IMG/VR virus record: IMGVR_UViG_3300010033_000003
Span: 1-37,744 of that record
Direction: 5' to 3' (one strand)
Length of the DNA stretch: 37,744 nucleotides
Source of the DNA: a virus
Made by a program: the position numbers and the translations under genes. This document shows, in pieces, positions 7,550 to 21,099 of this stretch. Positions within the stretch are counted from its first letter, which is position 1; each line of letters begins with the position of its first letter. A model generated the notes under the pieces. The model saw nothing but the letters and a program-made list of their open reading frames with translations, was not told the DNA's origin and ran no database searches.

Positions 7550-7759
7550 CTAATCCCCTACTATCAATACTTTAAGCCCTAAAGGCTTTAAAATTTTATT
7601 AACCCTTTCGATACTGTTTGAAAGGGTTTTTTCTTTGTGTTTGTAAGACTGCTCTGCAATTCCTAAAGCTTCACAGTACTTTTTTTTCGTTTTAAACTTC
7701 TTTTTAATTCGAAGTCTAAAGAGCTCCATAGCTCCGATTCTTGCTTCTCCTTCTTTCAT
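7550..7759 (-). CDS. Small XRE/Cro-like HTH protein (69 aa)
   Basis: KKKYCEALGIAEQSYKHKEKTLSNSIERVNKILKPLGL fits an XRE helix-turn-helix. ATGA overlap with the upstream acidic ORF. Confidence 0.6.
   Translation of the reverse strand: MKEGEARIGAMELFRLRIKKKFKTKKKYCEALGIAEQSYKHKEKTLSNSIERVNKILKPLGLKVLIVGD
7601..7636 (+). terminator. Rho-independent terminator of the late/lysis operon
   Basis: AACCCTTTC-N10-GAAAGGGTT is a perfect 9-bp stem followed by TTTTTCTTT. It lies inside the 3' end of the convergent HTH gene. Confidence 0.6.
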
Positions 7760-8046
7760 GATAAATCATCTATTAGTTGAACAATTTCTGTTAAAGTATC
7801 ACACAAGCAAACTGCATCCGCTGAATTACTATCTTGATCGATACATTCACAGGCGTTTGCGGTTATAAATATTTTATCCAATAAATGCTCTGTTAAATCA
7901 GATTCATCTATTTTATCTATCATAGATACTATTTTTTTTAAAGTATCTTCACAATCCTTTGCCTCTTCTGTTTCAAAAGATCCCAATTGTGGCACATCAT
8001 TAGCCTTTTCTCTAATTTCCTGAATTACATCTTTTATATGTCTCAT
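7756..8046 (-). CDS. Highly acidic 96-aa protein, unknown function
   Basis: Start MRHIKD at 8046, downstream of the promoter. 24 D/E versus 9 K/R, and 5 Cys. The track start at 8082 would sit inside the promoter. Confidence 0.6.
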   Translation of the reverse strand: MRHIKDVIQEIREKANDVPQLGSFETEEAKDCEDTLKKIVSMIDKIDESDLTEHLLDKIFITANACECIDQDSNSADAVCLCDTLTEIVQLIDDLS

Positions 8047-8053
8047 AATATTT

Positions 8054-8064
8054 AAATTTGATTC
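8054..8064. repeat. Left arm of an 11-bp inverted repeat (AAATTTGATTC)
   Basis: Perfect reverse complement of 8156-8166. Each arm lies in the 5' leader of one of the two divergent transcripts. Confidence 0.7.
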
Positions 8065-8068
8065 TATA

Positions 8069-8100
8069 CAAAGATAAAACAAAAAAATTAAAAAAACAAA
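8069..8100 (-). promoter_or_regulatory. Leftward Bacteroidota-type promoter
   Basis: On the minus strand: TTTG-N20-TATCTTTG (TAnnTTTG), about 22 nt upstream of the ATG at 8046. Confidence 0.6.
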
Positions 8101-8120
8101 TAAAAAAAGTTTATAAATTA

Positions 8121-8151
8121 TTTGGTGGTAAATAAAAAAGTATTACATTTG
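8121..8151 (+). promoter_or_regulatory. Rightward Bacteroidota-type promoter for the replication module
   Basis: TTTG (8121-8124), a 19-nt spacer, then TACATTTG (8144-8151). Confidence 0.65.
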
Positions 8152-8155
8152 TAGT

Positions 8156-10583: not shown

Positions 10584-10612
10584 TCCCTAGTTAAAATCTA
10601 GGGATTTTTTTT
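10584..10612 (+). terminator. Rho-independent terminator
   Basis: TCCCTAG-TTAAAAT-CTAGGGA followed by T8. Confidence 0.75.
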
Positions 10613-10634
10613 ATTAAAATTTTCACGTTAAAGA

Positions 10635-10666
10635 TTTGCACTAGTTAAAAAAAATAACTTACTTTG
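10635..10666 (+). promoter_or_regulatory. Near-consensus Bacteroidota-type promoter
   Basis: TTTG-N20-TTACTTTG, with one mismatch in the -7 box. Confidence 0.5.
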
Positions 10667-10690
10667 ATGTAAATATTAAAATTATAAATT

Positions 10691-10909
10691 ATGCCTAAAA
10701 GAATTAAAAAAGGTGAAGTACCTAAAAACGATTTAATAGCAAAATCAGCACTAGCAAAAAAATTAGGAATTAGTCCTGTAGCTATTCAGAATAGAGTTAA
10801 TAGAGGAACTTTGCACATTTACAAGGAAATTCCTGGTATCGAATTAATTTACGTTGAAAATCTTCATGATTGGATTCAAGAACAGATTAAAATCAAAAAC
10901 AATGGCTAA
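10691..10909 (+). CDS. Small HTH DNA-binding protein
   Basis: LAKKLGISPVAIQNRVNRGTL helix-turn-helix. Confidence 0.55.
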   Translation: MPKRIKKGEVPKNDLIAKSALAKKLGISPVAIQNRVNRGTLHIYKEIPGIELIYVENLHDWIQEQIKIKNNG

Positions 10910-11756
10910 AGACAAAAAATCTTTCGTCTTGTACGCAGATCAAAAAAGCGTTGTCGATATGTTGCCCGATGAAATTGCAGGAAAGCTTTTAAAGCATATT
11001 TTCGCTTACGTAAACGATGAAAATCCTGTAAGTGATGATATGATGGTAAATTTAGCTTTCGAGCCGATTAAACAGCAGCTAAAGCGCGATTTGAAAAAGT
11101 ACGAATCTGCTATAGAGAGAAAAGAACAAGGCGCAAAAATTGGAAATCTCAAAAGATGGCACCCTGATATATATCTTCGATATGAGAATGGTGAAGTATC
11201 TTTTGAAGAGGCTTTGAAAATCGCTAAGGATCGCAAAGAATCAAATAGCGATAGCAAAACATCGCATACCGATCGCATAGCGATAGTTACCGATGAGTTA
11301 CCGATCGCAGACCGATCGCATAGCGATAGTGAGCGATCAGATAGCGAAACTAAGCAATCGCATACGATCGCTTCTATCGCTGATAATGTTAATGATAATG
11401 TTAATGTAAATGATAATGTTAATGTTAATGTTAATGATATTAAAAAGGATAATAAGGGGAAAACAAGTTTTCCAACTACACCTAAAAAAAGAAATATTTT
11501 TTCTAAACCTTCTCTTGAAGAAGTTAAAGCTTATTGTCAAGAAAGAAAAAACGACGTGGACGCGCAAAGATTTGTCGATTTTTACGAGTCTAAAGGTTGG
11601 ATGGTAGGCAAAAATAAAATGAAAGACTGGAAAGCCGCCGTCAGAAATTGGGAACGAGGAGAAAATAAAACCAGACCAGAGGTTAAAAAACTGGCTAAAG
11701 AATTTGGATTACAAACCGCAAAAAACAGAATAGGATATGCAAGCGATAAATTTTGA
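10902..11756 (+). CDS. Replication initiator / replisome-organizer-like protein
   Basis: Start MAKDKKSF. The N- and C-terminal domains are joined by a low-complexity linker encoded by the iteron DNA. The C-terminus has FVDFYESKGWMVGKNKMKDWKAAVRNWE. Lies upstream of a DnaC-like loader. Confidence 0.5.
   Translation: MAKDKKSFVLYADQKSVVDMLPDEIAGKLLKHIFAYVNDENPVSDDMMVNLAFEPIKQQLKRDLKKYESAIERKEQGAKIGNLKRWHPDIYLRYENGEVSFEEALKIAKDRKESNSDSKTSHTDRIAIVTDELPIADRSHSDSERSDSETKQSHTIASIADNVNDNVNVNDNVNVNVNDIKKDNKGKTSFPTTPKKRNIFSKPSLEEVKAYCQERKNDVDAQRFVDFYESKGWMVGKNKMKDWKAAVRNWERGENKTRPEVKKLAKEFGLQTAKNRIGYASDKF
11245..11440. other. Putative origin of replication: iterons plus an AT-rich hexamer array inside the initiator gene
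   Basis: The 20-bp ACCGATCGCATAGCGATAGT is perfectly repeated at 11268-11287 and 11311-11330. There are extra ATCGCATA / ATAGCGAT cores in both orientations, then (GTTAAT/GATAAT)n at 11383-11437. Confidence 0.55.
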
Positions 11757-12432
11757 AAAGATGTTACAATGTGCCAAAAATCTTGCTAAAAAAGCAAAAG
11801 AAAGGCAATTAAGACCTTTTTTTAAAGGTTGTTCGGTAGAAATGTTTAGAGAGCTTTTTATAGCTTATGCAAATGTAGAGCTTTCAAAGCGTGACCCAAA
11901 CTCTGAATTTATTATCGATGATGATAATAGAGATGTTATAAATCAGCTTTATTTCTACATGATTGGAAGCGATAAATACGAAGGAAACTTGAATAAAGGA
12001 ATTCTTTTGCTTGGTAATCTTGGAAGTGGTAAAACTATCATCATGCAAACTTTCGTCAATGTTTGGAATGATATCAGCTTACAATCTGGATACAACAAGG
12101 TTATAAAATCATGTTCAGCAGTAAAGATCGTTGATTTGATTTCTCAAAAAAAGCTAAGCGATCAAGATGCAATGTTAAAAGATCAAATGTACAATGCTGC
12201 ATTCTTTGTTGATGATATTGGGAAAGAAAAATTAAAAGTAGTAAACTACGGTACTGAGGAATTTCCGCTTATCGATATGTTTTTGAAGCGATACGATAAA
12301 GGATGTGTTACTTTCGCTACTGGAAATTATAAGATCGCTACTTTGACAGAATTGTACGGTGAAACCGTAGCAGATCGTTTAATAGAATTGTTTCATACTC
12401 TTGTTTTAAAGGGTGATAGTCGTAGAAAATAA
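11737..12432 (+). CDS. DnaC/IstB-like AAA+ helicase loader
   Basis: Walker A LLLGNLGSGKT and Walker B AAFFVDDIGKE. Confidence 0.65.
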   Translation: MQAINFEKMLQCAKNLAKKAKERQLRPFFKGCSVEMFRELFIAYANVELSKRDPNSEFIIDDDNRDVINQLYFYMIGSDKYEGNLNKGILLLGNLGSGKTIIMQTFVNVWNDISLQSGYNKVIKSCSAVKIVDLISQKKLSDQDAMLKDQMYNAAFFVDDIGKEKLKVVNYGTEEFPLIDMFLKRYDKGCVTFATGNYKIATLTELYGETVADRLIELFHTLVLKGDSRRK

Positions 12433-12662: not shown

Positions 12663-14123
12663 ATGGAAAAAATAACTAAAAATGTTGTCTTCAAGCCTAA
12701 TAATAAAAAGCAGGTACAGTTTATAGATACTGTAATGAAGGCAGAACATACAGTTTTCTTATTTGGTGGTGCAATTCGTGGTGGCAAGACTTTCGTAGTC
12801 TTGTGCATCACGATTTTACTTTGTAAGATTTTTCCAGGGTCTAGATGGGTAATAGTGCGAAAAGATTTGAAAAGACTACGTGAAAATACAAGACCTTCAC
12901 TAAATAAGTTTATAACTGGTGTAGACGTAAAAATTAATGAACAACACCAAACTTTTATGTTTCCAAACGGTTCAATGATCATGTTTAAAGGTGAAAACTA
13001 TGATCGAGATAAAACGTTAGAATCATTTAAAGGACTAGAAACAAACGGTTTTATACTTGAAGAGGTTTCGGAAATTAGAGAGGTAACATATTACAAATGT
13101 ATCGAGCGTGCGGGCTCTTATATCATCCCAAACGTACCACTTGATAAGCAGCCGCCTCCATTGGTTTTAATGACTTGTAACCCTACGCAAACTTGGGTAA
13201 AACAATTGATTTATGATCCTTGGAAACTTGATCAAGAATTGATTCAGAAAAATGCAAAGCCGAAACATTTGCCGAAACACGTTTATTATTTGCCTTCATA
13301 TGTAACCGATAATGAAGCAAACTTAACAAAGTCATATTTAGAAAATATCAAGAATATGCCTCTTTATGAATACGAGGTGTTTGTTTTGGGGAACTGGGAC
13401 GTGGTTTTAAAGACCTCAAATGCTTTTTGGCATCAGTTTACTATGGATCAAGTAAAAGGTGTCTTCTATGATCCCGAAACGACTGTGCACGTTTCCATCG
13501 ATGCGAACAGTTTGCCTTATTGCTCAGCTTCATTCTGGCAGGTGTACCCAAAACAAAAGAAATTGGTACAGTTTCACGAAATTGCCGCTTCAGATCCAAA
13601 TAATCATGCTAGCGGTTTAGGTCGATTGGTTGCAGAATATTTGAATGAAGTTGAATACGCGGATGTTTTATACATTTACGGCGATGCTTCTACAAAGAAT
13701 CAAAACACAATTGATCCTGACAAAAAATCATTCTTTGATTTGTTTCTAGAACAATTAGCCTCAGAATTTAAAACAATCGATGAAATTGCACAATCAAATC
13801 CTAGAATTGCTAAAACAGGAGAATTTGTGAACGCACTTCACGCGGGTTATGATGGATGGAAATTAATAATCGGAGAAACATGCAAATACTCGATTTCAGA
13901 TTACATGAGTGTTAAAAAAGCGATGGACGGAACAATGGAGAAAAAGAGGGAAACCGATGATGAAGGTAGTAGTTACGAAAAACACGGTCACTTTTCAGAT
14001 TGTAAAAGATATCTATGCCACCGATTAATAAATGATGTGTTTCATAAATGGGATGGTCGTTTTTCTGAACCTTCTGAACCTTTGTCGGTCGATCCTTTTG
14101 AAGACTATGAAGAAAGTTATTGA
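12663..14123 (+). CDS. terL: Terminase large subunit
   Basis: Walker A FGGAIRGGKT, Walker B GFILEEVSE, coupling motif MTCNP, and a C-terminal nuclease-like VSIDANS...GDAS. Confidence 0.85.
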   Translation: MEKITKNVVFKPNNKKQVQFIDTVMKAEHTVFLFGGAIRGGKTFVVLCITILLCKIFPGSRWVIVRKDLKRLRENTRPSLNKFITGVDVKINEQHQTFMFPNGSMIMFKGENYDRDKTLESFKGLETNGFILEEVSEIREVTYYKCIERAGSYIIPNVPLDKQPPPLVLMTCNPTQTWVKQLIYDPWKLDQELIQKNAKPKHLPKHVYYLPSYVTDNEANLTKSYLENIKNMPLYEYEVFVLGNWDVVLKTSNAFWHQFTMDQVKGVFYDPETTVHVSIDANSLPYCSASFWQVYPKQKKLVQFHEIAASDPNNHASGLGRLVAEYLNEVEYADVLYIYGDASTKNQNTIDPDKKSFFDLFLEQLASEFKTIDEIAQSNPRIAKTGEFVNALHAGYDGWKLIIGETCKYSISDYMSVKKAMDGTMEKKRETDDEGSSYEKHGHFSDCKRYLCHRLINDVFHKWDGRFSEPSEPLSVDPFEDYEESY

Positions 14124-14127
14124 TTTT

Positions 14128-14158
14128 TTTGCATTTATAAGGATAATTTGTATATTTG
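14128..14158 (+). promoter_or_regulatory. Consensus Bacteroidota-type promoter, 5 nt after the terL stop
   Basis: TTTG (14128-14131), a 19-nt spacer, then TATATTTG (14151-14158). Confidence 0.65.
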
Positions 14159-14164
14159 TACAAA

Positions 14165-14254
14165 GTGATAGCAAAAATTGTTCATAGTTATTTTGTTTTT
14201 TGGTTAAAGTGGCGGGTAGTCGTTGTAGGTGCCCGCCCACAAAAAATTTTTTAA
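14165..14254 (+). ncRNA. Candidate ~85-90 nt small RNA, or alternatively a leaderless 29-aa hydrophobic micro-ORF
   Basis: Bounded by the promoter above and a GC hairpin plus A6T6. A GTG-initiated frame reads VIAKIVHSYFVFWLKWRVVVVGARPQKIF. Confidence 0.3.
14209..14252 (+). terminator. GC-rich hairpin plus an A6T6 tract
   Basis: GGCGGG (14211-14216) pairs with CCCGCC (14232-14237). Flanking pairs are extendable. It is followed by AAAAAATTTTTT. Confidence 0.4.
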
Positions 14255-14335
14255 TTGTTATGTTTTTATTATTCAGTGGTAAAGTCAACCCTCAAGACTT
14301 TAAGATCTCCCAAATAACGCGGTAAATAGCTCAAT

Positions 14336-14409
14336 AGTCCATTGGCTCAGTTGGTTAGAGTACTAGGTTGTCAGCCTAGGGATCACGGGTTCGAGTCCCG
14401 TATGGACTG
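14336..14409 (+). tRNA. tRNA-Asp (anticodon GTC)
   Basis: Folded by hand. Acceptor AGTCCAT/ATGGACT; D arm GCTC/GAGT; anticodon arm CTAGG-TTGTCAG-CCTAG with GTC at 14370-14372; 5-nt variable loop; T arm ACGGG-TTCGAGT-CCCGT; discriminator G. CCA is not encoded. Confidence 0.9.
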
Positions 14410-14411
14410 CT

Positions 14412-14485
14412 AAAGAACCTTTTTTTAAAAACTGAGTGCGAAAGTGGATAATTCCATTTAGTAGCACTCCACTGGTTCTTTTTAA
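14412..14485 (+). ncRNA. Nested-helix RNA element / long-range terminator after the tRNA
   Basis: Outer helix AAAGAACC (14412-14419) with GGTTCTTT (14474-14481), then T-rich sequence. Inner helix GAGTGC (14434-14439) with GCACTC (14464-14469). Competing helices AGTGGA/TCCACT and TGGA/TCCA. Confidence 0.4.
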
Positions 14486-14502
14486 TATTAAAAATAATAA
14501 AT

Positions 14503-14781
14503 ATGTACAAAACATATAAAGAACAAGAGACTCACGGAAAACTAAATGGTAGAATAATAAGGTATCTATTAGATAGTTATTTGATTGGTGTTATAGAATT
14601 TAGAGCTCCACATAAGCAATACAAAGATGAATTTACAATAAAGACAATACATAAAAAAGCTTTTAGTAGAAGATTCTTAATTACAAAGCTCAGAATAGAA
14701 ACACCAAAAGAAGTGTACAAGAGAGCTGAGAAGTGGTTAGAAAAAAGAATGGTAAAAAACGAGTTTGATAAATATTTTTAA
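14503..14781 (+). CDS. Hypothetical basic protein (92 aa)
   Basis: Clean ORF in the island, K/R-rich, with no motif recognised. Confidence 0.6.
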   Translation: MYKTYKEQETHGKLNGRIIRYLLDSYLIGVIEFRAPHKQYKDEFTIKTIHKKAFSRRFLITKLRIETPKEVYKRAEKWLEKRMVKNEFDKYF

Positions 14782-14786
14782 AAACA

Positions 14787-14814
14787 CTCAAGAGTCACGA
14801 GAAGAGGTTGACTC
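14787..14814 (+). promoter_or_regulatory. Hairpin A of a covarying 5'-UTR hairpin family
   Basis: CTCAAGA flank. Stem GAGTCA/TGACTC, loop CGAGAAGAGGT. 27 nt upstream of the ATG at 14842. Confidence 0.5.
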
Positions 14815-14841
14815 ATCCATTAATAATTAAAATCAATCAAA

Positions 14842-15117
14842 ATGGAAAATGCAAAACAAATGAAAGAATTAAGCTTGAGAAGTGCAAGCGGTAGAGTAGA
14901 TGACATGATTCATGATTCTGCCAATAAAGGTTTTAATCATTGTGATATTAATTTCATATTATCTAAAGATAAAATAATTGAATTGGTTGATCTTGGTTAT
15001 ATAATTGACTGCAAAGATGAATCTTTTTATAAATCAAATGAATATTTTTACAAACCAGATGGATATAAATCTTATTTACCTTCAAGAGATAAAAAAGTTT
15101 TGAGAATTGAATGGTAG
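14842..15117 (+). CDS. Hypothetical protein (91 aa)
   Basis: Clean ORF with no motif recognised. Confidence 0.6.
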   Translation: MENAKQMKELSLRSASGRVDDMIHDSANKGFNHCDINFILSKDKIIELVDLGYIIDCKDESFYKSNEYFYKPDGYKSYLPSRDKKVLRIEW

Positions 15118-15123
15118 AAACAC

Positions 15124-15145
15124 AGCCCCTTAACGGGGGCTTATT
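15124..15145 (+). terminator. Rho-independent terminator (weak T tract)
   Basis: AGCCCC-TTAACG-GGGGCT followed by TATTT. Confidence 0.55.
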
Positions 15146-15148
15146 TCG

Positions 15149-15176
15149 CTCAAGATCTACGAGAAGTGGTTAGATC
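15149..15176 (+). promoter_or_regulatory. Hairpin B of the covarying hairpin family
   Basis: CTCAAGA flank. Stem GATCTA/TAGATC, loop CGAGAAGTGGT. Three stem pairs differ from hairpin A and all are compensated. Confidence 0.5.
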
Positions 15177-15307
15177 AAATTTAAAAATTAAAACCATGGG
15201 AACTGATATTTAAAATTCAGGACTAGTAATCCGATTAGGTTTTAAAAATCCTCTTCCCCGCCATCATTAAGATGTAAGTGCAAAGGGGCGAATTTTAAAG
15301 GCACAAC

Positions 15308-15330
15308 GCACAGTTTCGAGGGTTCTGTGC
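15308..15330 (+). promoter_or_regulatory. Hairpin C (related loop)
   Basis: Stem GCACAG/CTGTGC, loop TTTCGAGGGTT. 25 nt upstream of the ATG at 15356. Confidence 0.4.
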
Positions 15331-15355
15331 AAATTTAAATCAAAAACGAAATAGA

Positions 15356-15709
15356 ATGAGAGATGTTATAAAGAATATAATAAAGAAAAAAATTTCTGAG
15401 CTAGAAGAAAAAGGTAGAAAATGCATTTTGCCGTTAGAGATGAAATTTCCTATAAAATTCAACAATAAAGAATATGAACTGACAATTCCTTTTAAGGGTA
15501 AGAATAACAAAAAACCAAAAATTTTGGAAATAATCAAATACAAAGGAATTAAAGGTTGTGTTATTTATTCAAAAGAAGATGAAATATTTCACGGTAAAAT
15601 ACTAGATACAAGACATCTTTTTTTATATGAAGGCAAAACCAGAGAAGAATTAAAAAAGAATTTTGAAGATATGGTCTTAATGTTCATTGAAGACAAAATA
15701 AAAGACTAA
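15356..15709 (+). CDS. HicB-family antitoxin-like protein, with an N-terminal extension and no DNA-binding tail
   Basis: YKGIKGCVIYSKEDEIFHGKILDTRHLFLYEGKTREELKKNFEDMVLMFIED matches the HicB-family signature YKGY.G.V....ED..FHG.I......I.FEG.T..EL...F...VD.YL. No HicA-like ORF is nearby. Confidence 0.65.
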   Translation: MRDVIKNIIKKKISELEEKGRKCILPLEMKFPIKFNNKEYELTIPFKGKNNKKPKILEIIKYKGIKGCVIYSKEDEIFHGKILDTRHLFLYEGKTREELKKNFEDMVLMFIEDKIKD

Positions 15710-15713
15710 TTTC

Positions 15714-15744
15714 TTTGCAGATTAAAAAATAATTACTATCATTG
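15714..15744 (+). promoter_or_regulatory. Near-consensus promoter
   Basis: TTTG-N19-TATCATTG, with one mismatch. Confidence 0.4.
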
Positions 15745-15784
15745 CATAGGACATATACATAGAGACTACGTTTTTGACATTCGA

Positions 15785-15822
15785 GAGCCAGATCCAAATT
15801 TTTGCGGTCTGGTTCTTTTTTT
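15785..15822 (+). terminator. Rho-independent terminator immediately upstream of terS
   Basis: GAGCCAGATC-N11-GGTCTGGTTC (with G-U pairs) followed by TTTTTTT. Confidence 0.65.
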
Positions 15823-15851
15823 GTATATTGATTAAAACAAACACAGCAAAC

Positions 15852-16448
15852 ATGGATAAGAATACAGAAAAGGAGTATGAAGACAGATTACAAATAGCGT
15901 TTTCACTCGTTGAAGATTTAAAAGATAAGGTAGAAGGTTTACAGACTCAAAAAGTAGCGCCGATTTGGGAGAATACGAAAATGGAGTTTGATAAAGACGG
16001 AAAAGTAAAGAAAAACCCAGGTGGAAGACCAAGAGCGTTTGAGAATCCAAAAGTACTTTGGGAAAAAGCAGTAGAGTATTTCCAGTGGTGTGATGAAAAC
16101 CCATACTTTAAAAATGAACTCGTTAAAGGTGGTAAGATGGCAGGAAAACTCATTTCTGTACCAACTGTAAGACCTTACACTTTAGGAGGGCTCTGCACCT
16201 TCATGAGTACTGGTACAAGCACTCTACACGACTACGAGAATAGAGAAGGCTTTGAAGAGTATTCGGAAATCATAAAGCGTATTAAGGAAATTATTAGGAC
16301 CCAAAAGTTTGAAGGTGCATCGATTGGCGCGTTTAATCCAAACATTATAGCTCAAGATTTAGGGCTTGCAAATAAGATCGAACACAAAGGTGAAGTAAAA
16401 ACAACTGAAAGTATAATTATCTACGCAGGTGAGGAAATAAAAATTTGA
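15852..16448 (+). CDS. terS: Terminase small subunit
   Basis: From MDKNTEK. GGRPRAFENPKVLWEKAVEYFQWC, then RPYTLGGLCTFMSTGTSTLHDYE...FEEYSEIIKRIK. This is the pattern of HTH-type small terminases. Confidence 0.65.
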   Translation: MDKNTEKEYEDRLQIAFSLVEDLKDKVEGLQTQKVAPIWENTKMEFDKDGKVKKNPGGRPRAFENPKVLWEKAVEYFQWCDENPYFKNELVKGGKMAGKLISVPTVRPYTLGGLCTFMSTGTSTLHDYENREGFEEYSEIIKRIKEIIRTQKFEGASIGAFNPNIIAQDLGLANKIEHKGEVKTTESIIIYAGEEIKI

Positions 16449-16603: not shown

Positions 16604-17329
16604 TTACTTGATCCATGCTTGTTTTGCTTGTACTAAAGCTTCTAAAGTACTAACATCTTTATATTCTTTAATTGTAAAGATAAGTTCCCTTATAATCTCA
16701 ACAGCTAGATCACTTTTTAAGATCTCTAATATAATCTTATTTTCCTCTTGGTTAACTATTTCTAGCTTTAATCTGTGAGCTTCTTCGGTTTTACCTTCTG
16801 CATAAAGTCTACCAAGTTTTTCATATTTTTCAGAATTAAGTCTAGAAAAAGTTTTTTTAACAACATCCTTATTAGACACTTCTTCATTAGATGTAAAATC
16901 AAGTACTTCTTTAATAGGATAATTCTTACAGATATAAGAGGCTAATCTTATTTGCCTCATTGTTGATATTTTTTTAAACATTTTATTAATAGTTCCATCA
17001 CTTAGATTATGAATTCTTTCAATAGATGCTGGGTTATGACCAAGAGGTGATAATACATATGAAAGATTAAATCTCATTTTTGATAACTGTTTTTCCGAAT
17101 AATCTTCTATAGTTCTGTTGTTAAATTCAGGATCAAGCTCGTCATTTATATACTGAACTATGACGAATCTACTTAAAGACCCAATTTCATAATCTTCATT
17201 AATGTATCTACTAACAAGAGTACTGCTTAAACCAATTTTTTTACTTACAGAAACTAAAGTTTCATTACCAATCTTTGCTCTTAATAGCTTTGAAATTTCG
17301 TCTTTCGACATTTTGTAGCTTGCTTTCAT
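16604..17329 (-). CDS. Putative transcriptional regulator with two HTH-like segments (241 aa)
   Basis: LVSVSKKIGLSSTLVSRYIN, and a second segment IERIHNLSDGTINKMFKK. Last gene of the leftward block. Confidence 0.5.
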   Translation of the reverse strand: MKASYKMSKDEISKLLRAKIGNETLVSVSKKIGLSSTLVSRYINEDYEIGSLSRFVIVQYINDELDPEFNNRTIEDYSEKQLSKMRFNLSYVLSPLGHNPASIERIHNLSDGTINKMFKKISTMRQIRLASYICKNYPIKEVLDFTSNEEVSNKDVVKKTFSRLNSEKYEKLGRLYAEGKTEEAHRLKLEIVNQEENKIILEILKSDLAVEIIRELIFTIKEYKDVSTLEALVQAKQAWIK

Positions 17330-17355
17330 GTTTTTATTTTTAAAATTATTAATAT

Positions 17356-17736
17356 TTATTTTTTACTTCTCTTAGGTTGAAATGCCATTTGTTCTTTCCA
17401 CCAGTCTTCTGTACTTTGTTCAGGTATTTCCTTTTTCTTACTCTTATTATACCCAATAAAGACTTGTTTCTCACACTTGACATACACTTTTGATTTTTCA
17501 CCTGCAATAATACAAGTAACAATAACATCAGGATTTTCAACTTCTTTCAATGTGGCTTCAATTTTTACTTTTTCTCCGTAAAATCTAGCCTCCCAAATAT
17601 GTTTTCTTTTACTCTCTTGTTCAACTGCAAGTAAATAGTTTGTTCTATCACTCAAAAAGAAATAAGCCGCTCTAATTGGTTCACTTTCGCAAACGTTCCA
17701 CTTGTCTATTGTTCTAAATCTTAATATTTTTTTCAT
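17356..17736 (-). CDS. Hypothetical early protein (126 aa)
   Basis: Clean ORF downstream of the promoter at 17760-17791. Confidence 0.6.
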   Translation of the reverse strand: MKKILRFRTIDKWNVCESEPIRAAYFFLSDRTNYLLAVEQESKRKHIWEARFYGEKVKIEATLKEVENPDVIVTCIIAGEKSKVYVKCEKQVFIGYNKSKKKEIPEQSTEDWWKEQMAFQPKRSKK

Positions 17737-17759
17737 GATGTATGAATTTGATTACACCA

Positions 17760-17791
17760 CTAATATAGAAACAATATTTAAAAAAATCAAA
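17760..17791 (-). promoter_or_regulatory. Early promoter (family member)
   Basis: Minus strand: TTTG-N20-TATATTAG, then the leader TGGTGTAATCAAATT. Confidence 0.5.
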
Positions 17792-17823
17792 CAAAAATGT
17801 TTATAAATATCGAGGAAAGTAAG

Positions 17824-17858
17824 CAAAAAATAATACCGTCATTATTAGTGACGGTATT
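17824..17858 (-). terminator. Rho-independent terminator (leftward)
   Basis: 10-bp stem AATACCGTCA/TGACGGTATT with a 7-nt loop, followed on the minus strand by TTTTTTG. Confidence 0.65.
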
Positions 17859-17879
17859 GGTTGTGTTTGGCGGTTAAAA

Positions 17880-18011
17880 TTAATCTTCTAAATATCTCAC
17901 TGAATGGTTTAAATTCTTACACATCTTCTTGTGATCATTAAAATTGTAAGGGAGTGGTATGTATCTTTTGCAATATGGACATACTCTGTAATTGTTTCTT
18001 TTTGGCTTCAT
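17880..18011 (-). CDS. Candidate 43-aa zinc-ribbon-like ORF
   Basis: MKPKRNNYRVCPYCKRYIPLPYNFNDHKKMCKNLNHSVRYLED (CxxC...HxxxC). Absent from the track. It fills the gap between YopX and the terminator. Confidence 0.4.
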   Translation of the reverse strand: MKPKRNNYRVCPYCKRYIPLPYNFNDHKKMCKNLNHSVRYLED

Positions 18012-18023
18012 ATGTTTTTTATG

Positions 18024-18431
18024 CTATGCCTTTCGGCGGTTGTTTATAAAATCGTAAATATCTCCAATTATTTTGTAATTAAATTTATGATATTCATGAA
18101 GCGAAATATATTTAGGAAGACGACCTCTACCTTTAATTCTTTTCAACACAATAGAACCTTCATGCCAACACACTACTCTAATTACTTCTTTGTCTGTTCC
18201 GTAATTGTTAGAACACACATCACCAATAAATACTTTTTCTCCAAACATTTCGTATCCTGTATATTGACAAACTGTATTCGGATCTACTTCTATTCCTGTG
18301 TAAAATCCAGTAGGGGTAATAATGTGTTTGCCTGTCTCAAAAATCCTACAATTAATTCCTGAATCAATAATAGATCCGTATAGCCATTCGTTATGACTAG
18401 CCCTTCGTGCTTTGAATAATATTTCTTTCAT
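18024..18431 (-). CDS. YopX-family protein
   Basis: Overall pattern MKEILFKARR...EWLYG...CQYTG...D..GKEIF.GD plus the C-terminal IIGDIYD, typical of YopX. Confidence 0.6.
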   Translation of the reverse strand: MKEILFKARRASHNEWLYGSIIDSGINCRIFETGKHIITPTGFYTGIEVDPNTVCQYTGYEMFGEKVFIGDVCSNNYGTDKEVIRVVCWHEGSIVLKRIKGRGRLPKYISLHEYHKFNYKIIGDIYDFINNRRKA

Positions 18432-18498
18432 TTTATTTGTTTTTAGTTAGACATGTTGTAAATATACAAAACTATTTATATATATCGAGGAAAATAAA

Positions 18499-18536
18499 CA
18501 AAAAAGCTGATATCGATTTAACGACATCAGCTTTTA
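18499..18536 (-). terminator. Rho-independent terminator (leftward)
   Basis: AGCTGAT.TCG-N6-CGA.ATCAGCT with one mismatch. There is a T tract on the minus strand. Confidence 0.6.
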
Positions 18537-18552
18537 AATAGGTTTTTAAGCT

Positions 18553-19005
18553 TTACGCTTTACACATCGGCTTTGATGGACGTATTTTTTTGCCTTCATG
18601 ATCAAGATTGAATAGTTTGTGATACCACTTTCTTGAACGTTCTTTATTCCAACTGTTACGCAAAGTACTACAATTGTCTACTAGACGCGAGTTTTGTTCC
18701 TCTAGCTTTGCTTTTTCATCTTGTAGATAATCGACAAGAGTTTTAGATTCCTTTTTGTGCTTGTCAAAAGCTTCCTTTATCTCTTGTACCTTTATAGAAT
18801 CTTTTTGAGTTTTCTCTATTAAAAACTTGTTGTCAACTTCTAGCTGAGTTTTTTTGTCCGATAGATCATTAAAGTTCTTTTGTAGTGACTTATGCCACGC
18901 TTCAAGATTGTTGTATTTTTCTTGAAGAATCTCGTTAGACTTTTCAATATTCTGAGCTACTTTAATAACGTGAGCTTTTGTTTTGCAATTTTCAAATTTT
19001 GACAT
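18553..19005 (-). CDS. Coiled-coil early protein (150 aa)
   Basis: Heptad-rich K/E/L/Q sequence with a basic C-terminus. Confidence 0.6.
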   Translation of the reverse strand: MSKFENCKTKAHVIKVAQNIEKSNEILQEKYNNLEAWHKSLQKNFNDLSDKKTQLEVDNKFLIEKTQKDSIKVQEIKEAFDKHKKESKTLVDYLQDEKAKLEEQNSRLVDNCSTLRNSWNKERSRKWYHKLFNLDHEGKKIRPSKPMCKA

Positions 19006-19049
19006 TGTAATTATTTATTTAATTAGACATTGGTGAAATGAATCACCGA

Positions 19050-19271
19050 TTAAGATAATTTTAAATGATTGAAGGTTTCGCAATGCTTTTTTGCATCCTC
19101 AAGATCATTGAAAAAAAGATTCTCTTCTCTTGAATCGAAACGCGTATAATCTTTAGCGTGATTAGCTGTAAGATAATACATATCTTTTCTAGCGCTGTAA
19201 AATATACGGAATAAAACGTTTTTACTTTTACCTTCGAAATGGGATAACCCAATAGATTTAAATCTGATCAT
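19050..19271 (-). CDS. Hypothetical early protein (73 aa)
   Basis: The start MIRFK at 19271 overlaps the upstream stop (ATGA). Confidence 0.55.
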   Translation of the reverse strand: MIRFKSIGLSHFEGKSKNVLFRIFYSARKDMYYLTANHAKDYTRFDSREENLFFNDLEDAKKHCETFNHLKLS

Positions 19272-19447
19272 AGTTTTACATTGTTTTTGTACCAATCTTC
19301 AAATTGGTCCATATTTGATTCATAAAAAAGGCATTTTGAACACGGGATATCAAAACAATTATCGTTATTGGCTAAACAATACGCTCTTTGTATCATATCT
19401 ATTTCGTGCTTTTTGCCTGGATATTTCAAACTTTTATACTTATGCAT
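19268..19447 (-). CDS. Candidate 59-aa Cys-rich ORF
   Basis: MHKYKSLKYPGKKHEIDMIQRAYCLANNDNCFDIPCSKCLFYESNMDQFEDWYKNNVKL. Directly downstream of promoter 19471-19502. Absent from the track. Confidence 0.45.
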   Translation of the reverse strand: MHKYKSLKYPGKKHEIDMIQRAYCLANNDNCFDIPCSKCLFYESNMDQFEDWYKNNVKL

Positions 19448-19470
19448 ATCAAACGTTTTTGATTACACTG

Positions 19471-19502
19471 CTAATGTATACACAATATATGTAAAAAGCA
19501 AA
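19471..19502 (-). promoter_or_regulatory. Early promoter (family member)
   Basis: Minus strand: TTTG-N20-TACATTAG, then the leader CAGTGTAATCAAAAA. Confidence 0.5.
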
Positions 19503-19511
19503 TAAAATTAT

Positions 19512-19541
19512 AAAAAAAACACCCCTATCGAAATAGAGGTG
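19512..19541 (-). terminator. Rho-independent terminator (leftward)
   Basis: Minus strand: CACCTCTAT-TTCG-ATAGGGGTG followed by T8. Confidence 0.65.
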
Positions 19542-19548
19542 ATTTAAT

Positions 19549-19863
19549 TTAAACTTTCCAGTCTTCAAAGACTTCTTCTTTTTGTGGTGTTTCGTCGAAA
19601 GGTCTTAATACTTCAACATAGATTTCCCGCATTTTAAGCGGCTTATTTTTATAACTATGTTTAAACTGAACCATATCGATAACACCAGTGAAGGGGCAAA
19701 GTAAAACGTTATTGTATGAATGTTTTCCGTTAACAATTACATTGCATCGGTAAATAGTTTTTTCACCGTTGTATTTGTAATTTGGGCTAAATGATACTAC
19801 CAAGCCCGTTTGATCTGTTCTTTCGTCTTCTGGTAGTTGAAAACGGTCGTTATCGCTACTCAT
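19549..19863 (-). CDS. Hypothetical early protein (104 aa)
   Basis: The start MSSDNDR at 19863 overlaps the upstream stop by 1 nt. Confidence 0.55.
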   Translation of the reverse strand: MSSDNDRFQLPEDERTDQTGLVVSFSPNYKYNGEKTIYRCNVIVNGKHSYNNVLLCPFTGVIDMVQFKHSYKNKPLKMREIYVEVLRPFDETPQKEEVFEDWKV

Positions 19864-20084
19864 TAGAATAAGTGAATTATAAGACAACCTATTGCGGCAC
19901 AACCTCCAATTATTATAGCTGCAAGGGCTATAGGATCCATTTTTTTCGCACTAACTCTACACATTCTTATAATTGAATTGTGAGCTTTCACGGTGTCCTT
20001 GATTAATTTCTTATCGTAGCGGTTTAGCTTGTAGTTTTCCTTCTCTTGAAGGATGCTTTCTACTTGTTGTATTGTCTTGTTCAT
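19863..20084 (-). CDS. Small tail-anchored membrane protein (73 aa)
   Basis: C-terminal hydrophobic segment IALAAIIIGGCAAIGCLIIHLF. Confidence 0.55.
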   Translation of the reverse strand: MNKTIQQVESILQEKENYKLNRYDKKLIKDTVKAHNSIIRMCRVSAKKMDPIALAAIIIGGCAAIGCLIIHLF

Positions 20085-20632
20085 TACACTAGGTCTTTAA
20101 GAATTGAATTTGGTTTATTAATTGGTGCAAATGCAAAATCGATTGTGAAGCCGTTTTCATCTGCTACTTGACGACCGAAAATATTTCCAATATGCTCAGC
20201 GCAAAAGAAAACTTCATAGGTTAAAAAGGCTGCTGAGCCTTTTGGGTTTGACACCTTACAAACTGCAAACTTTCTCAAGTAGTCTTTGTTTGGAGAATGT
20301 ACACCTTGTTGTTTGCATATTTCAACAATAATTTTTTGCAAACTCATTAAGATTTTTTCGTCCAAATCTTCAATTGTGTTTTTAATACTAGGTAATTGAC
20401 CTTTTGACAGATGATAATTGTAAACTTTTTCAATTTCTTTTCTCACTGCTGAAGGTCGGTTTGATTTTCTATTCAAAACAAGATTCATTTCTTCCTCTAA
20501 TTTTTCAAGTGACCAATCATGTACTTCATCTGTGTTACTGTGTTTTGGTCTTTTAGTTGGAAAATTTTGAAATTCAAGATCTTTAAGCTTTTTAAATTCA
20601 AAATTAATTTCGTTGTTTTCATTTACTACCAT
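20084..20632 (-). CDS. Hypothetical early protein (182 aa)
   Basis: Clean ORF with overlapping start and stop junctions on both sides. Confidence 0.6.
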   Translation of the reverse strand: MVVNENNEINFEFKKLKDLEFQNFPTKRPKHSNTDEVHDWSLEKLEEEMNLVLNRKSNRPSAVRKEIEKVYNYHLSKGQLPSIKNTIEDLDEKILMSLQKIIVEICKQQGVHSPNKDYLRKFAVCKVSNPKGSAAFLTYEVFFCAEHIGNIFGRQVADENGFTIDFAFAPINKPNSILKDLV

Positions 20633-21099
20633 ACTTTAATCCTCCTTTTAGCTAATCGGTTAAAAAATTCATAGTTGTATCCTGCATCCTTTACCCATGC
20701 TTTTAGGCGGTGCATGAATGCAGTTTTGTTAAGCTTTGGAAATAGATTGCAATACTCTTCGTAAACGTCTTTAACCAAAACTTTAACGTTTTTAACGTTT
20801 TCGAATACATTTTCAAAGAAAATCATTTCTTTATTTACTAGCAACAATTGTTCGTATTGCTCTTTAGTAATTGGATCAATTGAATGTATTCCTTCGGTAA
20901 CTTCGTTGATATCCACTAAAGGACGTACACCTTTTTGATCAGACATAGCCTTTTGACAGGTGTTTTTAATACTCCACTTGATAGTTTCAATATCATAGTA
21001 TTTTCCTGTATCAAGGGAAATGATTCTACTTTTAAAATAGTTAGAACCTGCATACTGCTTTGACGCAATATCTTTTACTTTGTCTACAATCGTAATCAT
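20626..21099 (-). CDS. Hypothetical early protein (157 aa), first gene of the leftward block
   Basis: Clean ORF downstream of promoter 21129-21159. Confidence 0.6.
   Translation of the reverse strand: MITIVDKVKDIASKQYAGSNYFKSRIISLDTGKYYDIETIKWSIKNTCQKAMSDQKGVRPLVDINEVTEGIHSIDPITKEQYEQLLLVNKEMIFFENVFENVKNVKVLVKDVYEEYCNLFPKLNKTAFMHRLKAWVKDAGYNYEFFNRLAKRRIKVW

Follow-up and report, generated by a model that had tools for sequence, protein, structure and literature searches.

We examined a 37,744-nt stretch of viral DNA (IMG/VR record IMGVR_UViG_3300010033_000003, positions 1–37,744), hereafter the window, and within it the 1728-nt island (14124–15851) that separates the gene for the large terminase, terL, from the gene for the small terminase, terS. 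We consider it likely that this interval is a hotspot for the insertion of accessory genes, of the moron or hyperplastic type, at a junction that is inherited across the clade and equipped with a promoter. The comparison with related phages demonstrates the synteny of the junction, its variability between phages, the conservation of the flanking units and the orphan, low-G+C nature of the cargo. We see here the usual plasticity of phage genomes and no proven counter-defense device. The window is essentially a whole phage contig (∼38 kb); a public contig bearing the same terL measures 37,762 nt. Features are on the plus strand unless stated otherwise, and loci of related phages are designated by L numbers.

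The Interval between terL and terS Is Variable among Related Phages

The large terminase gene (12663–14123; 486 amino acids [aa]) matches Pfam Terminase_3 (E = 4e-6) and phrog_979 (E = 6e-28). The small terminase gene (15852–16448; 198 aa) is of the P22 gp3 type, with matches to Pfam GP3_package (E = 1.6e-26) and phrog_606 (E = 8.5e-38). A preliminary description of this DNA, made from the letters alone, had reported that the two genes stand in inverted order and 1.7 kb apart, and this is correct: terS lies downstream of terL, at a distance of 1728 nt. Replication genes directly precede terL, among them one for a DnaC-like loader (11737–12432).

The terL gene has 451 homologs, the closest of which are 55%–63% identical and lie on ∼38 kb contigs. 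A megablast search of the region against GenBank phages gave zero matches, and the sole terL relative in IMG/VR is 34% identical. A scan of GTDB genomes with terL reached 45% identity at best and yielded no host or prophage context; the wider terL family is found in Bacteroidota (Pedobacter, Chitinophagales and Sphingobacteriales) at identities of at most 45%. The clade itself comprises uncultured, myovirus-like phages of Bacteroidota with genomes of ∼38 kb. A Flavobacteriia-like host would fit the promoter type, the G+C content of 34% and the likeness of the tRNA to that of a Cellulophaga phage.

The alignment of terL-terS intervals proposed in the preliminary description was carried out with 12 distinct relatives in or next to the terL clade, whose terL is 51%–62% identical. 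The interval proved variable and its content phage specific. It carries no cargo in L006, L003, L008 and L010, where it measures 110, 111, 123 and 129 nt, respectively, and it holds a 58-aa open reading frame (ORF) in L007 (193 nt). Other members carry a DNA methylase gene (L002, 735 nt), three antisense ORFs (L131, 920 nt) or ORFs of 164 and 43 aa (L132, 1018 nt). An antisense helix-turn-helix (HTH)-like ORF and a second antisense ORF occupy the interval of L011 (at least 887 nt), and at least five antisense ORFs that of L005 (at least 1544 nt). L004 has an interval of 636 nt without an ORF. In the window, the 1728 nt contain a tRNA-Asp gene and three ORFs, referred to by their lengths in amino acids as ORF92, ORF91 and ORF117.

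The cargos are unrelated between phages. That of the window is missing from all 11 other clade loci, so that, as for a moron, it is absent at the same junction of syntenic relatives. A tblastn search with the island proteins against 88 loci, most clade members included, returned zero matches. A further property expected of a moron is a G+C content that deviates from the surrounding genome, and the island ORFs have 24.9%–27.6% G+C vs 34.4% for the genome and 36%–37% for terL and terS. The earlier idea of a variable hotspot at a recombination-permissive site is borne out to this extent: relatives' intervals run from 110 to at least 1544 nt with unrelated content, and the island ORFs are low in G+C.

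Two further observations concern variable DNA around this junction. The interval of L004 (1838–2473) contains approximately nine dispersed, A-rich repeated boxes of the form AAAA(C/T)TAAAAGT(T/A)GAA, which are scored weakly by Tandem Repeats Finder and could be protein-binding iterons or pac-type sites. A second variable region lies directly after terS (window 16604–21099, minus strand) and consists of small, mostly unannotated antisense genes preceding the gp36/portal operon. An antisense block is present at the same position in L003, L004, L131 and L132; L006 has only one 52-aa antisense ORF there, and L008 has none.

The Inverted Gene Order Extends to the Whole Clade

Gene order was compared across 8 loci around the closest terL homologs, which are 55%–62% identical and lie mostly on ∼38 kb contigs, and 80 further metagenome loci; terS was located in each by tblastn. 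A GP3_package terS lies downstream of terL at every locus with a terL at least 53% identical and with enough downstream sequence (nine loci from eight distinct phages, with gaps of 110–735 nt, among them L002, L003, L004, L006, L007, L008 and L010; L009 duplicates L007). L131 and L132, which were added later, have the same order. The canonical operon, with terS immediately upstream of terL, is found neither in the window nor in 10 clade relatives. It does occur among the relatives with 35%–44% identity: where a gp3-type terS is detectable in these, it lies directly upstream (L018, L022, L024, L029, L064, L078, L079 and L081).

Within this one terL family, the small terminase varies in both family and place (L133 4432–6461; window 12663–16448; L018, L029 and L081), and three arrangements are seen: gp3-type upstream, Terminase_2 upstream and, in the clade of the window, gp3-type downstream. 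The second of these is represented by L133 (terL 52% identical), in which a small terminase of the other family, Terminase_2, lies upstream and genes for a Mu gp36-like protein and a Mu-type portal follow directly after terL.

By this comparison, the inverted order is an inherited, clade-wide relocation or replacement of terS. The island is not its cause, because the inversion is present even in members with a 110-nt gap. The premise of the preliminary description that the order is caused by, or specific to, the island therefore does not hold; the whole clade inherits it.

Predicted Promoter-Hairpin Units Flank the Cargo

The preliminary description had also given an inventory of the island, comprising a host-type promoter 5 nt past the terL stop, a GC hairpin, a tRNA-Asp, a nested-helix RNA, two motif-less small ORFs, an orphan HicB-like ORF and a second promoter-terminator unit before terS. 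Nearly all of these parts were recovered where it had placed them. The first promoter, P1 (14128–14158), is an exact match to the Bacteroidota sigma-A-type pattern, TTTG-N19-TATATTTG, and begins 5 nt past the terL stop. It is followed by hairpin 1 (14209–14240), a GC-rich stem (GGCGGG...CCCGCC) and then A6T6, for which the fold of the surrounding 97 nt (14160–14256) has z = -2.5. Hairpin 1 is not a canonical terminator, as its T-run begins 9 nt past the stem. The tRNA-Asp gene comes next and is succeeded by T1 (14412–14485), a nested-helix element (14412–14481) with a U-run and a fold z of -4.6. The 90-nt stretch containing T1 has a minimum free energy of -22.8 kcal/mol, and none of 200 shuffles was as stable. 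We read T1 as the putative intrinsic terminator of a P1-tRNA unit.

Further downstream, T2 (15124–15141) is a GC hairpin (AGCCCC-ttaac-GGGGGCT) with a weak U-tail, a putative terminator-like element after ORF91. The second promoter, P2 (15714–15744; TTTG-N19-TATCATTG), aligns with the units of L003, L010 and L002. It is followed by T3 (15783–15824), a 12-bp hairpin with U7 that ends 28 nt before the terS ATG; the fold of 107 nt has z = -3.3, with 0 of 200 shuffles as stable, and the scan score is 17. The cargo is accordingly provided with a predicted promoter and terminators of its own, as a moron would be: P1-tRNA-T1, T2 after ORF91, and P2 with T3 at the close. An identical 12-mer, CTGGTTCTTTTT, occurs at 14472–14483 and 15809–15820, where it forms the 3′ arm and U-run of T1 and T3. 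It could be a recombination junction or could have arisen by chance, ∼0.1 such matches being expected in 2 kb.

In number, the exact promoter pattern is not above chance: the window has 5 matches vs an expected 2.6, and at least 5 were obtained in 13 of 100 shuffles. Its significance comes from the conservation of its position in relatives and not from the count. Three of the five matches are intergenic and correctly oriented, namely P1 and a divergent pair at 8069–8151, and the pattern is therefore read as the phage's real promoter type. The divergent pair consists of back-to-back exact TTTG-N-TAnnTTTG promoters on opposite strands, between a minus-strand ORF (7756–8082) and the recombination/replication operon that starts at 8154, and is probably the early control region.

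The P1 slot at the terL stop also bears a promoter in L003, L010 and L052. More generally, 37 of 116 related loci have a TAnnTTTG box in the stretch from -25 to +52 nt relative to the terL stop vs 8 of 116 in the reverse-complement control (binomial p ∼1e-15, with loci that are not all independent). Such a -7 box by the terL stop, within ∼60 nt after it, was noted in L003, L010, L012, L018, L052 and others. It seems to represent a promoter directly downstream of terL that is shared by the family and predates the relocation of terS. In L052 (terL 37% identical), which carries the -7 box after terL, the gene behind the box looks to be of the gp36 type, as judged from its N-terminal sequence and its position.

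Cargo-free relatives show what the junction looks like when it is short. In L003 and L010, the terL stop is overlapped or directly followed by the promoter (TTTG, then ATTAAAAAATAATTnCTATATTTG); a GC hairpin with a run of T7–T9 comes ∼35–60 nt after the promoter, and the terS ATG lies 15–35 nt further on. L002 has a promoter-hairpin unit after its methylase gene, and L006 and L132 have a hairpin and T-run. A hairpin with a T-run is thus positioned 15–35 nt before terS in L002, L003, L006, L010 and L132, and among the relatives this terS-proximal element is preceded by a promoter in four cases; L007, L008 and L131 have no clear promoter-hairpin unit. P2/T3 aligns with the relatives' units, with which it shares ATTAAAAAATAATTnCTAT and TTCGAGAG, and is therefore taken to be the orthologous terS-proximal unit. 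L010 and L003 share the extended core of P2, whereas the sequence shared with L002 is TTCGAGAG, at the base of the hairpin. The extended motif occurs once in the window and is also found in L010 and L052. Judged by sequence, P2 is the apparent ortholog of the relatives' terS-proximal promoter (ATTAAAAAATAATTnCTATnnTTG), and the island appears to be bracketed by two copies of the normal promoter-hairpin unit of this lineage.

The same unit can be interpreted in regulatory terms. The conserved promoter, the leader of ∼35–60 nt and the terminator before terS would then form an attenuation or antitermination switch that times the expression of terS and the late genes, analogous to lambda PR′-tR′/Q; the window would merely have a duplicated switch, and its cargo would be incidental. 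Here the promoter precedes the terminator, the opposite of the usual terminator-then-promoter order found at 10584–10670. In 6 of 10 clade members, the terminator is so close to the terS ATG, at a distance of 15–35 nt, that a further promoter would not fit between them. Conservation of the promoter core extends to phages with only 54%–61% terL identity, and in L006 and L008 terS heads the gp36-portal morphogenesis operon. However, no antiterminator candidate was identified, the leader sequences are not conserved, the unit is not clear in three members (L007, L008 and L131, as above), and the hairpin could merely terminate the long replication-terL operon. A switch would also leave the variable cargo unexplained, and it is compatible with an insertion hotspot, without being exclusive of it. 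We regard a regulatory switch as a possible, though improbable, account of the interval.

The preliminary description had further asserted that no other part of the genome has such a density of promoters, terminators and hairpins. Two independent scans rejected the idea that the island is uniquely hairpin dense. A GC-corrected sliding-fold scan found 2 outliers in the island vs up to 4 per 1728 nt elsewhere, and a relaxed terminator scan found 2 vs up to 5 elsewhere.

The tRNA-Asp Is Divergent and Specific to This Phage within the Clade

The tRNA-Asp gene (14336–14410; anticodon GUC) was detected by ARAGORN and by Rfam RF00005, with a score of 65.5 bits vs a gathering score of 29. Its sequence is divergent, and it has a canonical cloverleaf with the G73 discriminator, G10, G18G19 and T54–C56, and no encoded CCA. 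The acceptor pair A1:U72 is unusual, and the anticodon loop reads UUGUCAG (U32/G38). The tRNA-Asp of Cellulophaga phage phi4:1 (L135, 560–633) has the same A1:U72 pair, an identical T-arm and a compensatory change at 5:68, and differs in the anticodon loop, with C32/C38 vs U32/G38 in the window. In IMG/VR, the T-arm/acceptor pattern is matched only by phi4:1, and the anticodon arm gave zero matches.

A tRNA common to the relatives was considered and rejected. No clade member has one, and tRNAs are present only in the distant L050, L056 and L092, with other identities. Codon usage was likewise rejected as the reason for a tRNA-Asp: Asp makes up 5.65% of the phage codons, 77% of them GAT, and its usage is unremarkable. 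By analogy with other phage tRNAs, the tRNA replacement suggested in the preliminary description would be plausible.

Integration of temperate phages at tRNA genes is frequent. The tRNA-Asp gene might on this basis mark an integration (attP) or transduction scar, with the island being host-derived DNA, and terL homologs of the wider family do occur in Pedobacter and Chitinophagales genomes. However, PHROG scans of the whole window found no integrase, and GTDB genomes contain no close terL relative (best 45%). The tRNA itself is full length and divergent, has the A1:U72 pair and resembles a phage tRNA, that of Cellulophaga phi4:1, more than any other record searched. An origin of the island as such a scar is extremely improbable.

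Three Orphan ORFs, One with a HicB-like Domain

ORF92 (14503–14781; 27.6% G+C) and ORF91 (14842–15117; 26.4% G+C) are orphan genes. An exhaustive phmmer search with ORF92 of 1.84 billion representatives recovered only the query itself, and the same result was obtained with ORF91 and ORF117 in 5.8 billion clusters. ORF92 and ORF91 have no PHROG match; none of the three ORFs has a match in Pfam (E ≤ 10), NCBIfam or PADLOC, and a sequence search of the PDB with the island proteins returned nothing. A single-sequence AlphaFold2 (AF2) model of ORF91 had a predicted local distance difference test (pLDDT) score of 50 and was unusable. In an ORF-length null model, three co-oriented, non-overlapping ORFs of at least 90 aa were obtained in 0 of 2000 shuffles of the AT-rich (30% G+C) interval. 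ORF92, ORF91 and ORF117 are probably real genes, and the first two are motif-less, as the preliminary description had stated.

ORF117 (15356–15709) contains a HicB N-terminal-like domain at residues 58–112, which match phrog_9151 “HicB-like antitoxin” (E = 1.2e-9); its N-terminal 57 aa are unmatched. It is 46% identical over 50 aa to a 73-aa stand-alone “HicB-like” protein of a Vibrio phage, which has no annotated HicA neighbor. In addition, residues 59–107 are 43% identical over 49 aa to residues 4–52 of the HicB of phage mEp234, whose neighbor is a Pfam HicA_toxin. The match to phrog_9151 and the alignment with mEp234 HicB suggest that this part of ORF117 corresponds to an N-terminal, HicA-binding-type domain. 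A single-sequence AF2 model of ORF117 had a pLDDT of 55, and Foldseek found nothing in the PDB below E = 0.2; the top matches, all weak, were dsRBDs, on which we place no interpretation.

Neither of the other components of a HicAB system was found. No C-terminal DNA-binding domain (ribbon-helix-helix [RHH], HTH or PF05534) was detected in ORF117, where the domain match ends at residue 112 of 117; mEp234 HicB has PF05534 at residues 55–104, and ORF117 has no counterpart to it. There is no hicA adjacent to ORF117, and the 238 nt upstream contain stops in all frames. HicA was not found in PHROG and Pfam scans of the window ORFs, and the best tblastn match of mEp234 HicA lies in the tail-tube gene at chance level (E = 0.046). 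Because ORF117 has no DNA-binding part and the window no HicA, we take ORF117 to be an orphan HicB-N-domain protein and not part of a toxin-antitoxin system. The preliminary description was thus right to call it an orphan; its further term, antitoxin mimic, derives from this single ∼50-aa domain match.

A Repeated Hairpin and a Largely Unstructured Spacer

A 23-nt motif, D1, occurs twice in the window, both times in the island (CTCAAGAGTCACGAGAAGAGGTT at 14787 and CTCAAGATCTACGAGAAGTGGTT at 15149); the count expected from shuffles is 0. It was not found in 8 related loci or in IMG/VR, and a genome-wide or family-wide occurrence of D1 was accordingly rejected. Copy A (14787–14814; CTCAAGA-GTC-[ACGAGAAGAGGTT]-GAC-TC) lies ∼28 nt upstream of the ORF91 ATG. 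Copy B (15149–15176; CTCAAGA-TCTA-[CGAGAAGTGGT]-TAGA-TC) is followed by an AT-rich spacer, ATGG and a 5-codon ORF. Both copies form a hairpin with a conserved 11–13-nt loop, and at three internal pairs both strands of the stem have changed (G-C, U-A and C-G vs U-A, C-G and U-A) such that pairing is kept. With two copies only, this covariation is at most suggestive. An integron attC-like site was rejected as an identity for D1: one copy lacks the RYYYAAC/GTTRRRY cores, and an integrase is missing.

Downstream of both copies of D1 lie a similar AT-rich stretch and ATGG, leading to the start of ORF91 after copy A and to the short peptide MGTDI* (15196–15213) after copy B. Copy B and the next ∼140 nt may represent the leading part of a cassette that has since decayed. 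D1 occurs a third time, as a partial copy, at 14716–14744, inside the 3′ end of ORF92, where it encodes ...AEKWLEK...; 13 consecutive nt of it, AGAAGTGGTTAGA, are identical to copy B at 15162. This hints that the D1 repeats could derive from duplicated coding sequence.

The preliminary description had called the 238 nt upstream of ORF117 structured and non-coding. The whole spacer (15118–15355; 37% G+C) is indeed non-coding. Structure is confined to the T2 hairpin and D1 copy B; the 150 nt from 15206 to 15355 fold no better than shuffles (z = -0.5), and the remainder of the spacer after the 5-codon ORF (15214–15355) contains a small hairpin at 15308–15330. At a permissive E-value, Rfam recognized only the tRNA within 14050–15950; RAGATH-11 at E = 4, which is also the level of the best match for the 238-nt spacer, is noise. 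The proposal that the spacer is a decayed hicA or a paralog of an island ORF was rejected, as tblastn shows no similarity.

These observations bear on whether the cargo is functional. The tRNA gene might be the only useful part of the interval, and the ORFs decaying filler around it: they are three singletons with no detectable homologs, their AF2 models are of low confidence, and a neighboring cassette has visibly decayed to a 5-codon ORF. However, three co-oriented ORFs of at least 90 aa did not arise in any of the 2000 shuffles, the domain match of ORF117 to real HicB proteins is significant, and all three ORFs were called by gene callers in public assemblies. We consider non-functional filler very unlikely.

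They also bear on the proposal that the island is an integrated host-takeover or counter-defense cassette in which a nuclease-resistant tRNA-Asp and an orphan HicB antitoxin mimic are co-regulated by dedicated RNA elements. Phage tRNAs are able to neutralize tRNA-cleaving defenses (PMC11464382, PMC11555353), and the U32/G38 loop is unusual relative to the C32/C38 of the Cellulophaga phage tRNA-Asp. ORF117 retains just the domain of the HicB toxin-binding type, without a HicA partner, and the D1 hairpins, whose stems differ by three compensatory changes, are found in the island alone. However, the parts never co-occur elsewhere, the three proteins are singletons, and the anticodon arm of the tRNA-Asp is unmatched in IMG/VR. 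PADLOC and anti-defense families gave zero matches, and tRNA-Asp is not mentioned as a defense target in PMC11555353 or PMC13056530. The promoter/terminator units on either side are the spacer normally found in this lineage, the allegedly structured spacer is not structured, and each sub-unit resembles a separate insertion with its own terminator. A cassette of this kind is unlikely. The description of the island as self-contained and under its own RNA-level regulation is not supported either: the cargo elements recur nowhere searched, no close relative has a tRNA, and the units belong to the ordinary spacer of the lineage.

A Model for the Origin and Expression of the Island

Under the insertion-hotspot reading, the ancestral spacer would have been a unit of 110–130 nt, with a sigma-A-type promoter immediately at the terL stop and, 15–35 nt before terS, a hairpin resembling a terminator, and ∼1.5 kb of unrelated, low-G+C cargo would have accumulated between two copies of this unit. 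The cargo can be envisaged as three blocks. The first, comprising P1, hairpin 1, the tRNA-Asp and T1, would constitute a complete small transcription unit. ORF92, a D1 hairpin, ORF91 and T2 would make up the second. The third would begin with the second D1 hairpin, heading the decayed cassette, and continue with ORF117, after which P2, T3 and terS would close the series.

In this model, host RNA polymerase would initiate at P1 with no need for phage factors, the tRNA-Asp would be matured from the P1 transcript, and most of this transcription would stop at T1. Incomplete termination at T1 and T2 would give graded expression of ORF92 and ORF91, the latter ended by T2, and of ORF117. Re-initiation at P2 would ensure that terS is transcribed despite the inserted terminators. 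The repeated promoter/hairpin units could serve as short homologies for the exchange of cargo among co-infecting relatives, as the PeSLs of T4-like phages do (see below). Our best guess is that the cargo supplies dispensable, host-specific helper functions. As putative roles, the tRNA-Asp could provide extra Asp-decoding capacity or resilience to tRNA loss, and ORF117 could bind a HicA-type toxin.

Several points weigh against an insertion hotspot built in this way. Promoters and terminators alike are predicted from patterns and folds, and hairpin 1 has no adjacent U-run. The likeness of P1 to P2 (∼68% identity over 38 nt) barely exceeds what their consensus and AT-richness would give. ORF92, ORF91 and ORF117 have no recognizable promoter of their own, such that their expression relies on assumed read-through; as singletons, they carry no evidence of purifying selection and may be young or decaying. 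The nearest terL relative, at 63% identity, is too distant to place the boundaries of the insertions, to order the events or to tell which of P1 and P2 is the ancestral copy. Finally, the compensatory D1 hairpins hint at an island-specific regulation that a hotspot leaves unexplained.

A composite model can also be envisaged. The promoter-leader-terminator unit would serve as a switch, by attenuation or antitermination, that gates terS and the late genes and at the same time as a portable homology for swapping cargo, and the D1 hairpins would be operators for an island-encoded RNA-binding protein that controls the cargo post-transcriptionally. We view this combination as rather unlikely, and we retain the insertion hotspot as the preferred explanation.

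Repeats Elsewhere in the Window

Two repeat arrays lie outside the terminase region. The ORF at 10854–11756, which encodes a DUF6291 protein in the replication module, contains tandem 11-nt and 21-nt repeats (ATCGCATACCG, ∼6 times) and then (TAATGT) x 8.8, at 11261–11436; these iteron-like repeats are a candidate origin of replication. At 4742–4929, a 51-nt tandem repeat (3.7 copies, 85% identity) lies within a tail-spike-like gene (3831–5606).

Implications

If the preferred explanation is true, the island provides a further example of small phages collecting and exchanging optional genes at a fixed, promoter-equipped junction. This junction is easily located, after terL and before a gp3-type terS, across a clade of uncultured Bacteroidota phages, and it could be mined as a catalog of host-interaction genes in a phylum with poorly known phage biology. 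The annotation of such genomes should benefit from knowledge of the terS relocation seen throughout the clade and of the promoter that the family has after terL, and the promoter-terminator pair before terS is a candidate for late-gene control in Bacteroidota phages. The counter-defense proposal, combining the tRNA with a HicB mimic, would matter only with experimental demonstration. Mildly new are the gp3-type terS downstream of terL throughout the clade, the family-wide post-terL promoter, the promoter-terminator pair before terS and the two compensatory hairpins; none of these is categorically new.

Comparison with Known Systems

The unit before terS recalls lambda PR′-tR′ (6S RNA, Q antitermination) in architecture only: in both, a host-type promoter is followed less than 100 nt later by an intrinsic terminator, and the pair heads packaging or morphogenesis genes. 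In contrast to lambda, no Q-like protein or binding element was identified here, and the unit is not universal in the clade.

Phage-borne tRNAs have been implicated in the rescue of infection from host defenses. The tRNA-Lys of T5 rescues infection from PARIS (PMC11464382), and phage tRNAs counter retron effectors (PMC11555353). The window resembles these systems in having a phage-borne tRNA, with an anticodon loop (U32/G38) that departs from that of its nearest phage relative (C32/C38). It differs from them in having one tRNA-Asp only, with no implicated system that targets tRNA-Asp, and in the unremarkable Asp codon use of the phage.

Compared with the type II toxin-antitoxin system HicAB, as represented by hicAB of phage mEp234, ORF117 has the likeness to the N-terminal domain of HicB (residues 59–107, 43% identity). 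However, it has neither a hicA gene beside it nor a C-terminal DNA-binding part (PF05534, RHH or HTH), it has an extra 57-aa N-terminal part, and the Pfam and NCBIfam HicB models are silent. Vibrio phages have stand-alone “HicB-like” proteins of 73 aa, to which ORF117 is similar.

In T4-like phages, composite cassettes of an early promoter and a stem-loop terminator (PeSLs) mediate modular shuffling and indels (PMC2839356, PMC4122927). In the window the promoter comes before the hairpin, in contrast to the “terminator/promoter” composites of the PeSL paper; only two copies of the unit are present here, their sequences are unrelated to the T4 motifs, and no collection yielded a relative above 63% terL identity. 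In a possible likeness to PeSLs, promoter-plus-hairpin units that appear to be repeated flank the cargo, and the terS-proximal one has counterparts at the equivalent junction in relatives.

The closest comparison is with morons and hyperplastic regions (HPRs), such as the lambdoid morons, the lambda nin region and the T4 HPRs. The site differs in being the junction of terL and terS in uncultured Bacteroidota phages with a rearranged packaging module, and the signals are of the Bacteroidota type (TTTG/TAnnTTTG). In common with morons and HPRs, the island consists of small accessory genes with a promoter and/or terminator of their own, inserted co-oriented between two conserved genes, with deviant G+C and with content that varies among syntenic relatives.

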